A stretch of 64,000 bases of DNA, from IMG/VR virus record IMGVR_UViG_2880412407_000011; one strand, written 5' to 3'. Of this stretch, positions 27,301 to 30,300 are shown one piece after another. The stretch is from a virus. Lineage: Duplodnaviria; Heunggongvirae; Uroviricota; Caudoviricetes. A program made the position numbers. Each line of letters opens with the position of its first letter. Position 1 is the stretch's first letter.

Positions 27301-30300
27301 TTCGACTCCACTACAACGCGCCACACTTATTTTCCAGGCTCGCTTCGGCGGGCCTTTTTTGTATCTGCGCCACGCCCGGCGCATATCAACCACAGAGCCT
27401 TTCGGGGGTGAGCTTACGGAGTGGTCAGTGTGACTTTCTCTGTGGGCAGATCGCTCCCGGGCGTTGGCTCACCCACCCAAAGGAACGTCACGATGTTTGG
27501 AATCTTCAAAAAGAAAACCCGCAGAGCGGCAGCGGAAATTAAAAAGTTTGAGAAACGCGATCTGGCACAGGCGGTGATTAACGCTGCATACCTGGTGGCC
27601 TATGCAGATGGTGAATGCGAGGCATCCGAGAAAGCGAAGATCGAACAGGTCTTACGTAATCAGCCTGCGTTGTCTGCGTTTACCTCGGAAATTAATGCGA
27701 TTAGCGCAACTATTATCGGTCAGCTGGATACCAATTTTAAAATTGGTCGTCGTGCCGCGTTACGCGAGATTGAGGATGTGAAACACGATACGCGTGAAGC
27801 GGAAGATGTGCTGGATGTGGCGGTGGCCATTGCGGAGGCAGACGGCGAAATTGAGCCGGAAGAGCGCAAGGTGCTGGAAGAGATTGCCGGTGTTCTGGGT
27901 CTTCGTCTGGAGAATCACCTGTGACGGTAAAACTGCGCCTGGCTGTGGCTGCACTCCTGCTGTTTCTGGTGGTGATGGTGGATTTCACCAGCAGAATCAT
28001 GTCGGTGCTGGCGGATGGGGTGCTGGTCTGCGGCATTGTGGTATTGCTGTGGCCGGTGATAAAAAGAAACAGCCTGCATAATGCTTGATTTTTTTGTTTG
28101 CTGTTTATTAAAAACACTTCTGCATGGTGAATCCCCCTGTGCGGAGGGGCGATCAGCAACCAGGTATATGGGATAATCGCGGATTCAGGTGCTGATACTG
28201 AATTCACCGGGAGGCACCCGGCACCATGCTTTGCCACAAAAGTGTTGTTTCTGTTTTTCTCAAACTATCATCGTTATCCCTTTATTTCCGGCTGCGCATG
28301 GCGCGGCCTTTTTTTTACGACCAGCCACTGGCAGATGGTCATCCTGTGATTTGATTCCGGTTCCGGCTTTTTAACTCTGTTCCTGTACACGGGAGAAATT
28401 CGATGTCGATTAAACATTATGATGTTGTCAGGGCGGCGTCGCCGTCAGACCTTGCGGAAAAGCTGACACACAAACTGAAAGAGGGCTGGCAGCCGTTTGG
28501 TAGTCCGGTGGCCATAACCCCTTATACCCTGATGCAGGCGATTACAGCAGAAGGTGATGTGGTGGTCAGTGGTGCAACTGAGCCGGATTGGTACTACGTC
28601 ATCGTACTGGCCGGGCAGTCCAATGCCATGGCTTACGGTGAAGGGCTTCCGCTGCCGGATTCATACGATGCTCCGGATCCGCGCATTAAACAGCTGGCGC
28701 GCCGCAGTACAGTGACGCCGGGTGGGGCTGCCTGCAGATATAACGATATTATTCCGGCCGACCACTGCCTGCATGATGTGCAGGATATGAGTACGCTGAA
28801 TCATCCGAAGGCAGACCTGAGCAAAGGGCAGTACGGCTGTGTCGGCCAGGGGTTACATATTGCCAAAAACTGCTCCCGTATATCCCGAATAACGCGGGGA
28901 TCCTGCTGGTACCATGCTGTCGTGGTGGTTCGGCATTTACCCAGGGCGCGGAGGGGACATTCAGTGCGGACACGGGGGCCAGCCAGGATTCGGCGCGCTG
29001 GGGTGTGGGTAAACCGTTATATCAGGACCTGATTGCGCGCACCAAAGCTGCATTACAGAAGAACCCGAAAAATGTGTTGCTGGCGGTGTGCTGGATGCAG
29101 GGAGAGTTTGACATGAGCGCCGCCACCCACGCACAGCAACCTGCGCTGTTTACAGCCATGCTGACACAGTTTCGTGCTGACCTCTCCGTGTTTAACGCGC
29201 AGTGCCATGGTGGCAGTGCTGCAGATGTGCCGTGGATTTGTGGTGACACGACGTATTACTGGAAAAATACATACGCTACCCAGTACGACACCGTGTACGG
29301 CGGGTATAAAAACAGGGAGAGTGAGGGCGTTTATTTTGTGCCCTTCATGACAGACGGTAACGGCGTCAATACCGCCACTAACGCGCCGGCAGAAGATCCG
29401 GATATTCCGGCATCAGGATATTACGGTGCGGCATCGAGAACGAATGGAAACCAGGTATCATCAAACCGCCCGACACATTTCAGTTCATGGGCGCGCAGGA
29501 GCATTATTCCGGATCGTCTGGCAACCGCTATTCTGAACGCAGCCGGGCGCACCTCAGCCTTCATCAGTGGTAAGGCACCGGAAATCAAACCCTCGCCCGG
29601 CGGCAACACGCCATCGGGTCCGTCTGCAGATACGTCCGTTCGCACAATCTCCCTGCTGCCGGCAGCCGGAGAGGCTGCTGCGCAGGGCTGGAGCATTAAG
29701 GATGGCGGAATTCAGTTGTCAGATGGTGTATTTAAGATCACCAAGCAGAGCAATAAAACCTGGTCCCTGACGCATCCGGTGGATGACGCAATTACCCTGC
29801 TGACACAGGGCGGCAGACTGACCTGTAAGTTCCGCCTGTCAGGCGCACTGACCAACAATCAGTTCGGGCTGGGGATTTATCTGTATACGGATGCTCCCGT
29901 TCCTGATGGTGTGGCGATGACGGGTACCGGTAATCCGTTCCTGATGTCGTACTTCACTCAGACCACTGACGGCAGAGTGAATCTGATGCATCACAGGAAA
30001 GCCGGAAACACGAAGCTGGGGGAGTTCGGCGATTACGGTAACGACTGGCAGACGCTGGAGCTGGTGTTCACCGCCGGCAGTGCCACGGTTACTCCGAAAC
30101 TGAATGGAGTGGCTGGCCCGGCATTCCAGGTTATAAAAGACAGTCTGACACTGGGACTGAATGCGCTGACGCTGACGGATGTTACAAAAAATGCAGCGTA
30201 TGGCGTTGAGATAGAAAGTCTGGTGCTGGAGATAAATGCACCGGCAGCATAATAAAAAAGAGCCAGCGACTGACCTGAAAGAAGACGCTGGCTAAAAGGC

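Follow-up and report, generated by a model that had tools for sequence, protein, structure and literature searches.

What does a lambdoid prophage carry at the site where Shiga toxin (Stx) phages carry the stx genes, and what does this cargo do for the phage? The question is raised by the IMG/VR virus record IMGVR_UViG_2880412407_000011, a member of the Caudoviricetes, of which a stretch of 64,000 nucleotides (nt) was analyzed here (the window). An initial annotation had pointed out two overlapping genes at this site, one for a TerB-like protein and one for a small hydrophobic protein, and had regarded the pair as uncharacterized and as laid out like an abortive-infection or stress-response module. 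Homology and gene order make it almost certain that the locus is a tciA-tciB (tciAB) accessory cassette of a lambdoid prophage, orthologous in kind to tciA-tciB of phage P1. The cassette lies in the late operon, between the Q antiterminator and transfer RNA (tRNA) genes on one side and nanS-p and the lysis genes on the other, at the stx site. The pair is a member of the known phage TciA/TciB family and most likely a lytic-cycle inner-membrane module. The structured RNA leader that precedes tciA is a more novel result than the pair itself. The observation made in the initial annotation was confirmed, and its interpretation was supported in part.

Results

Identification of tciA as a TerB-family gene

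The open reading frame (ORF) tciA (27493-27924, + strand, ATG start) encodes 143 amino acids. Its product matched the hidden Markov model (HMM) of Pfam TerB (PF05099) over residues 26-138 with 60.2 bits, above the cut-off of 24.4 (E 2.9e-16), and contains two ADGE.E..E motifs at residues 38-46 and 116-124, in agreement with the TerB-like protein with two acidic repeats described earlier. The D, G and E positions of these motifs are invariant across the alignment of homologues, and the N-terminus (MFGIFKKK) is basic and conserved. A profile built from TciA homologues aligned nearly end to end with the TerB structure PDB 2JXU (residues 15-137 to 21-144, E 4.3e-14). The AlphaFold (AF2) model of TciA is all-helical, with eight helices and a predicted local distance difference test score (pLDDT) of 88.4; its best Foldseek matches were two TerB-like structures, 2h5n and 2ou3, at weak E-values (0.012 and 0.58). 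The DjlA model of NCBIfam matched the second TerB repeat weakly (E 1e-6, far below its cut-off). TciA is assigned to phrog_632 ("tellurite resistance") in PHROGs and is labeled "tellurite resistance TerB family protein" in RefSeq, and P1 TciA is 42% identical to it over the full length (tblastn against phage genomes). The ratio of nonsynonymous to synonymous substitution rates (dN/dS; Nei-Gojobori, usable pairs) was approximately 0.013, indicating purifying selection. TciA is a full-length TerB-family protein. None of terA, terC, terD, terE, terZ and terF was found at the locus, where the neighbors are Q, an AraC-family gene, tRNA genes, tciB, an STnc100 gene and nanS-p.

The tciB gene and its pairing with tciA

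The second gene, tciB (27921-28088, + strand), starts with GTG in a GTGA overlap with the tciA stop and encodes the 55-amino-acid hydrophobic protein that had been noted before. TciB belongs to the Pfam family DUF3927 (PF13064; 62.3 bits, cut-off 25, E 4.3e-17) and to phrog_1470 ("TciB-like"), and carries the RefSeq label "DUF3927 family protein". This family is small, with 110 representatives at 50% identity among 1.84 billion proteins, and its longer matches are chimeric gene calls. Hydropathy analysis revealed two hydrophobic stretches (Kyte-Doolittle maxima of about 2.8 and 2.7) joined by a short DFTS loop, and both ends of the protein are basic. Together with the positive-inside rule, these features suggest that TciB is a two-helix hairpin of N-in/C-in topology. 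The conserved features are R6, the DFT[SG] loop, S..[AS]D in helix 2, where the Asp is predicted to be intramembrane, and WP near the C-terminal end; R6, DFTS, S..AD and WP are kept from E. coli prophages to an N4-like virulent phage. The dN/dS of tciB was approximately 0.16 (same method), again indicating purifying selection. The idea that TciB is a "mini-TerC" or a TerC fragment was rejected, since a search of six diverse TciB proteins against Pfam at E up to 10 returned zero TerC matches; five of the six matched DUF3927, and the remainder was weak noise.

The conservation of the pair was surveyed with one genome per species, which gave 29 loci with a TciA identity of 36-99%. A TciB HMM match abuts the tciA stop in 25 of them. 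At the other loci, the gene behind tciA is a two-helix ORF that has diverged and starts with TTG (Pantoea), a frameshifted tciB (Dryocola) or a different single-helix ORF (Pseudomonas), and one locus is cut short. A tciB-type gene thus abuts tciA in 27 of the 28 informative loci, the divergent and the frameshifted one included. The junctions among the 29 loci measure -4 (GTGA/TTGA), -1 (TGATG/TAATG), 0 or +3 nt, and two at -8 nt depend on automatically called starts. At the level of sequence, this pattern is a signature of translational coupling from tciA to tciB. Because the abutting pair is conserved across genera and both genes are under purifying selection, the pair is far beyond chance, and the two ORFs are conserved as the unit that the initial annotation had described. 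In the N4-like virulent phage Pollock, TciA and TciB are 28% and 55% identical to the window proteins, respectively, showing that the small TciB can exceed TciA in conservation. Apparent TerB-DUF3927 fusions (P0124, P0186, P0248, P0291 and P0305) were discarded as Rosetta-stone evidence, as they are frameshifted or chimeric gene calls.

Position and transcription of the cassette

Comparison by blastn with the Stx2a phage LC567834 delimited an exchangeable cassette that comprises leader, tciA and tciB (27372-28103, + strand). Homology to this phage extends over 27067-27371, ending 43 nt before stx2A, and starts again at 28104, 87 nt after stx2B. The cassette takes the position of stx2AB base for base, between the tRNA terminator and an STnc100-family small RNA (sRNA) gene, so that the proposed location in the stx slot holds. 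This sRNA gene (28093-28265, + strand; 104.7 bits with Rfam RF02076, whose gathering score is 47) follows tciB directly; in Stx phages, STnc100 sits about 75 nt downstream of stx2B (PMC12370729, PMC12711010; see also PMC13192938).

An intrinsic terminator with an 8-bp G+C stem, a TTCG loop and a T run (27336-27361, + strand; hairpin 27336-27355) ends the tRNA unit directly before the leader, and a second one found by the terminator scan (28290-28316, + strand; 28290-28308 in the scan coordinates) closes the unit before nanS-p. A consensus scan detected no sigma-70 consensus promoter in 27360-27493. Sigma-70, sigma-E and sigma-54 promoters in the leader were considered and set aside, since the consensus scan was empty and inspection by eye gave no convincing match. 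Enclosed by two terminators and lacking a sigma-70 consensus promoter of its own, the cassette would, to judge from its anatomy, be expressed chiefly after induction, through read-through by Q-modified RNA polymerase. The initial annotation had expected transcription both with the late genes and from the upstream AraC-family region; the former stands, and the latter is unlikely in view of the strong terminator and T run that separate the AraC-family and tRNA genes from tciA and of the missing promoter consensus.

A structured leader precedes tciA

The 5' leader of tciA (27362-27492, + strand, approximately 130 nt) was recognized by conservation and covariation. In the alignment of the 5' region, it is conserved more strongly than tciA itself, and full-length copies of the same leader (nhmmer E 1e-25 to 1e-47) precede tciA alleles whose proteins are only about 42% identical. 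The leader was found in E. coli, Salmonella, Pantoea, Franconibacter and Buttiauxella, and partly in an Erwinia jumbo phage; no copy precedes tciA in P1, P2-like phages or Pollock. All of the leader copies examined stand behind an intrinsic terminator, which differs in sequence from copy to copy. When a 20-nt core motif was searched in IMG/VR, tciA followed in 108 of 120 cases, and nearly all of the other 12 were cut short or had a frameshifted tciA.

The pairing elements comprise helix P0 (27367-71:27378-82), helix PKa formed by the P0 loop (27373-77:27459-63), P1 (27390-97:27438-45), an anti-Shine-Dalgarno (anti-SD) segment at 27398-402 that pairs with the Shine-Dalgarno (SD) sequence at 27479-83, H2 (27406-14:27466-74) and P3 (27423-27:27431-35). 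They were tested in 112 distinct leader sequences; since these sequences were the source both of the helices, at first reading, and of the models behind the alignments, the following counts lean towards structure. For PKa and P1 together, pairing was 92.4%, double (compensatory) changes occurred in 13 of 13 pairs, and the covariation was 0.45 as compared with 0.116 in shuffled and 0.03-0.08 in slid controls. At one PKa pair, each of the four Watson-Crick types occurs (AU 75, GC 14, CG 10, UA 9). For P0, anti-SD and H2, which lie outside the alignment model, pairing was 93.9% against 25-51% when slid, with double changes in 14 of 19 pairs against 5.9 +/- 1.2 in shuffled controls. Explicit helix tests were used, since the default RNAalifold consensus on a MAFFT alignment mixed competing helices. 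Five helices (P1, PKa, P0, anti-SD:SD and H2) hold across the 112 sequences. G-U pairs are frequent in them, which suggests that the leader is read as a sense-strand RNA.

P1 and PKa cross the pairing of H2 and the anti-SD, and the leader may therefore be either a double pseudoknot or a two-state switch. In minimum free energy folds, the SD was closed inside the anti-SD and H2 helix in three of four diverse members. Sequestration of the SD, as predicted from the sequence, is the only property of the leader that can be read directly: the anti-SD CCUUU would pair with the SD AAAGG, so that the pseudoknotted leader would gate tciA translation. TciB would then be made by translational coupling via the GTGA overlap, favoring its co-production with TciA.

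The leader is not confined to tciA. The window holds a diverged paralogue (31967-32108, + strand; nhmmer and covariance model, 93.4 bits, E 1.8e-22) with its own terminator hairpin just before it, between an endolysin gene (31305-31838) and an antirepressor-like gene (32109-32663; P22_AR_N and ORF11CD3), with Rz (32820-33293) downstream. Pattern scans gave at least 165 validated leader copies upstream of at least 16 unrelated cargo clusters, among them genes for Ant/KilAC, KilA-N with ORF11CD3, Rha and P22_AR_N proteins, an HNH endonuclease, a 486-residue protein, a 328-residue protein and several unknowns (IMG/VR loci L401-L636, e.g., L524, L629, L409, L529, L405 and L542). The variety of unrelated genes behind the leader makes a gene-specific metabolite riboswitch unlikely, and likewise a tciA-specific (e.g., metal) riboswitch. 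Identity with the sRNAs PasA or PasC was not supported, as the Pas paper places these beside the holin/lysozyme operon and not upstream of TerB. The leader core had no match in Rfam 15 at E up to 10, where only the upstream terminator resembled generic sRNA 3' ends, and a text search of the literature for the leader sequence retrieved nothing relevant. As far as Rfam 15 and this literature search show, the leader is undescribed.

We tentatively propose, at a confidence only just short of even, that the leader defines a new class of cis-acting regulatory RNAs in phages, the "moron leader", which would always follow a terminator, fold as a double pseudoknot and sequester the SD. It may form a portable expression module for unrelated accessory genes in the late operons of enterobacterial lambdoid phages, which would gate translation or process the mRNA on a phage or host signal. 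In that case, tciAB would be a tightly gated, lytic-phase minimal TerB system.

Distribution of tciA and tciB

The region 27400-28200 is present at 80% coverage or more in 798 of 5,426 complete E. coli genomes and is enriched in genomes of enterohemorrhagic (EHEC) and Shiga toxin-producing E. coli (STEC). The pair is annotated by the Prokaryotic Genome Annotation Pipeline (PGAP) in hundreds of genomes. With these PGAP labels, the PHROGs families phrog_632 and phrog_1470 and the names tciA and tciB in the GenBank record of P1, the statement that the pair had not been recognized does not hold.

The flanking genes change between loci, and the constant part is tciAB alone. The order Q, tciAB, holin/lysozyme recurs in Pantoea, Franconibacter, Citrobacter, Enterobacter and related genera, and in a Salmonella lambdoid prophage tciAB stands beside a CHAP-domain gene (a possible lysin; weak Pfam match). 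In P2/186-like prophages, the pair follows a CII-type early regulator. In the P1 record, tciA, tciB and tciC have overlapping stops and starts and lie between tRNA genes in the ban operon, which is annotated as C1-operator-controlled. Among virulent phages, the N4-like Pollock carries the pair and the Erwinia jumbo phage Asesino carries tciA with only a divergent tciB-like gene behind it, in both cases among early or middle genes. The Pseudomonas phage PMBT3 and the Vibrio phage K481 are listed with tciA alone. The tRNA genes flank the pair in the window, P1 and Asesino and lie near the lone tciA of K481. As a defining feature of the pair, tRNA linkage was rejected, since tRNA genes occur in only 4 of 26 species-level loci.

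Discussion

Our analysis suggests that TciAB functions in lytic growth for the benefit of the phage, because a terminator stands upstream, a promoter is missing, and the pair is carried by phages that never lysogenize. We propose that TciB inserts in the inner membrane as an N-in/C-in hairpin and that TciA works with it at the cytoplasmic face of the membrane, through its basic N-terminus and its two acidic, presumably cation-binding motifs. TciB would be the membrane partner of TciA, as TerC is for TerB. The pair may stabilize or monitor the energized inner membrane of the infected cell during lytic development, and the insults to be countered could include DNA injection by superinfecting phages, pore-forming colicins and other depolarization. 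As a result, competitors would be excluded, and the holin clock, the lysis schedule and the burst would be protected. TciAB would thus be a phage-benefiting membrane-surveillance or exclusion module and not a suicide module. The proposal draws on the reported interaction of TerB with the membrane protein TerC (PMC11003894), on the "membrane surveillance" proposed for the TerB domains of Bunzi, Shango and Dionysus (bioRxiv 10.1101/2022.05.11.491447; 10.1101/2025.09.30.679545), and on the implication of ter operons in phage inhibition and colicin resistance (PMC8123226). Taken as a whole, from identity through expression to membrane mechanism, this explanation is the one that we favor, at somewhat less than even confidence; the membrane-protection mechanism by itself, argued by analogy, is tentative, at the same or a slightly lower confidence.

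Several points weigh against the proposed lytic membrane function. The ter-operon phenotypes need terC, terD and terE, none of which is present at this locus. We found no direct evidence that TciA binds TciB or the membrane. The literature search found no functional study of TciA or TciB, other papers repeating the homology-based name. The promoter scan was based on consensus sequences, and a weak or non-sigma-70 promoter active in lysogens could escape it; STnc100 copies are transcribed in uninduced EHEC (PMC5331693), which makes some transcription in the lysogen possible. In P1, tciA, tciB and tciC were dispensable for plaque formation in a CRISPR interference (CRISPRi) screen (PMC10695390), a result that fits an accessory role and provides no phenotype. 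Lastly, each gene occurs without the other, which indicates that TciA and TciB are not obligate partners: phage 434-type prophages carry tciB without tciA, behind an unrelated 247-residue polytopic membrane protein (80 of 80 IMG/VR loci), and the PMBT3 and K481 phages carry tciA without tciB.

In phage 434 itself (OL657226; locus L196, 2138-3125), as in loci L198-L277, the gene of the 247-residue protein, which has no Pfam match, is followed after 86 nt by the DUF3927 gene, whose first 12 or so codons differ from those of the window tciB. Outside the Enterobacterales, tciA is followed by a different small single-helix protein in Pseudomonas juntendi (L095, 4445-4645), and no small membrane gene accompanies it in PMBT3 (L195) and K481 (L194). 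The membrane partner of TciA appears to be lineage-specific.

The strongest competitor of the lytic function is an anti-phage defense of the prophage by abortive infection, the layout that the initial annotation had in mind, in which TciA senses membrane perturbation by an incoming phage and TciB is a small membrane-disrupting effector, with which the lysogen, or an infected cell, would block competitors at its own expense. Validated defense systems do pair TerB-domain proteins with membrane or pore-forming proteins, namely Bunzi and Shango (bioRxiv 10.1101/2022.05.11.491447) and Dionysus, with DinB and the pore-forming DinC (10.1101/2025.09.30.679545), and a conserved two-helix protein with an intramembrane Asp, encoded in a cargo slot, would suit such a role. 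DNA resembling tciB is also widespread, occurring in 1,341 E. coli genomes and in up to 10 places per genome. However, PADLOC-DB 2.0 gave no meaningful match, with one marginal partial hit for TciA (PDC-S48, E 0.0035, 35 residues) and none for TciB; the pair occurs in strictly virulent phages; and its temperate copies, in P1, P2-like and lambdoid phages, lie in lytic, repressor- or Q-controlled operons. At this locus, moreover, a terminator stands upstream and no promoter of its own was detected, and a "toxin" coupled 1:1 downstream of its "sensor" without separate control would be unusual for abortive infection. We therefore consider the defense explanation unlikely. The virulent carriers, the lytic repressor- or Q-controlled operons and the missing defense-model match lead us to favor lytic use over both an abortive-infection and a lysogenic-conversion module.

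Lysogenic conversion, whereby TciAB would confer resistance to tellurite, colicins or oxidative stress on the lysogen, is improbable. Membership in the TerB family and the enrichment in EHEC/STEC genomes are in its favor, as is the neighboring STnc100, which is expressed without induction (PMC5331693). Virulent carriers, however, form no lysogens that could be converted, the locus lacks the remaining ter genes that resistance requires, and no promoter was detected; on the missing ter genes, the authors of the PMBT3 genome argued the same for its lone phage terB (PMC8421299). Of comparably low probability is a counter-defense decoy, in which the phage TerB acts as a dominant-negative mimic against host TerB systems (the Phi phenotype of the ter operon, Shango, Bunzi and Dionysus) and TciB places TciA at the membrane. 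Such a decoy would agree with carriage in the lytic operons of virulent and temperate phages and with the use of TerB domains by host defense systems, but it is pure conjecture, and TciA has the full length and the conserved acidic motifs of a canonical TerB and is not a degenerate mimic. That tciB is a leftover or independent ORF and tciA acts alone is very improbable. In its favor are the 434-type phages, where tciB follows a different gene and the breakpoint of homology and recombination relative to the window falls inside tciB at 27955, and the lone tciA of some phages; against it are abutment in 27 of the 28 informative loci with start/stop overlap, purifying selection on tciB and motifs that are invariant from E. 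coli prophages to the N4-like phage.

The closest known counterpart of the window cassette is tciA-tciB-tciC of the P1 ban operon. TciA and TciB are 42% and 50% identical to their P1 counterparts, the latter within the same DUF3927 family, and both loci share the gene order with start/stop overlap and the tRNA neighbors; in P1, the genes also hold a repressor-controlled lytic operon position. In contrast to P1, this locus lacks tciC, the third small single-helix gene: STnc100 follows tciB, and the sole overlapping ORF, of 31 amino acids (28081-28176), is unlike P1 TciC. Furthermore, the P1 copy has no structured leader and lies in an early operon, whereas the window cassette lies in a Q-dependent late operon. 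In terZABCDEF, terB precedes terC, just as a membrane-protein gene follows the full-length TerB homologue here. TciB, with its 55 residues and two predicted helices, nevertheless had no TerC match, even with E-values of up to 10 allowed, and the locus lacks terA, terD, terE and terZ; tellurite resistance is not expected from TerB alone. Bunzi, Shango and Dionysus also combine a TerB-domain protein with membrane proteins. Their partners, however, are larger and multi-domain (a helicase/ATPase, or a pore-forming toxin with four transmembrane helices), whereas tciAB is phage-encoded, in virulent phages as well, and is not matched by PADLOC models. DjlA, whose TerB-like domain is held at the inner membrane (PMC11709261), resembles TciA weakly in the second TerB repeat and, if the membrane proposal holds, in this membrane-held domain; TciA differs in having no J domain and in having its presumed membrane element as a separate protein instead of an N-terminal anchor.

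The leader resembles SD-sequestering riboswitches and RNA thermometers in being a 5' untranslated region (5'-UTR) element that would bury the SD in a conserved helix. Nested double-pseudoknot RNAs, among them hepatitis delta virus (HDV)-like ribozymes, have the same order of strands (P1-5', H2-5', hairpin, P1-3', H2-3'), a resemblance that is topological only. The leader differs in having no Rfam match and in standing before numerous unrelated cargo genes.

Known since the 1990s, TerB has a domain that is found again in tellurite-resistance operons, in DjlA and in several anti-phage systems. With a soluble protein and a 55-residue membrane partner, tciAB is the smallest natural TerB system. 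Its presence in temperate and virulent phages and its dispensability in P1 make it a convenient handle on the long-unknown function of TerB and, if the moron-leader proposal is true, a tractable model for it. In EHEC/STEC prophages, its location at the stx site means that tciAB shares the expression logic of the toxin genes, with Q-dependent late transcription and STnc100 downstream. The leader, if confirmed, would be an undescribed structured RNA in hundreds of phage contigs and would explain how lambdoid phages plug foreign genes into the late operon under common control.

Flanking genes and other observations

Upstream of the pair, the window carries a Q-type antiterminator gene (DUF1133/Phage_antitermQ, 25205-25771), an ORF of 106 amino acids, listed between Q and the AraC-family gene, and the AraC-family gene itself (26329-27042, + strand), with a promoter-like site at 26266-26293. 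The product of the last is closest to YdeO/GadX (NCBIfam E 2e-30, well short of the equivalog cut-off), and we take it to belong, by class and not by sequence comparison, with the EHEC prophage regulators PsrA, PsrB and PatE. ARAGORN and Rfam identified two tRNA genes, 27071-27146 (CAT anticodon) and 27247-27323 (TCT). Between them, at 27157-27233 (+ strand), lies a decayed tRNA-Arg, the middle member of the Ile2-Arg-Arg trio usual in prophages, which neither reports; its counterpart in E. coli E2865 is annotated as tRNA-Arg. The related E2865 prophage (locus L001) has a RelE/ParE-ParD toxin-antitoxin system at 4428-4990, on the opposite strand and upstream of its DUF968, RusA and Q genes.

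Downstream of the pair, the genes are nanS-p (DUF1737/SASA esterase), holin and lysozyme. The STnc100 RNA at 28093-28265 may derive from the 3'-UTR of the cassette or arise by read-through from it, and the terminator region before the leader (27325-27366) resembles the STnc100 3' end. The nanS-p gene (DUF1737, SASA esterase and DUF6645) differs strongly from the allele of strain E2865 and is split into overlapping ORFs at 28403-29032 and 29005-30252 (+ strand) that divide the SASA domain; it is probably a frameshifted pseudogene or reflects a sequencing error.

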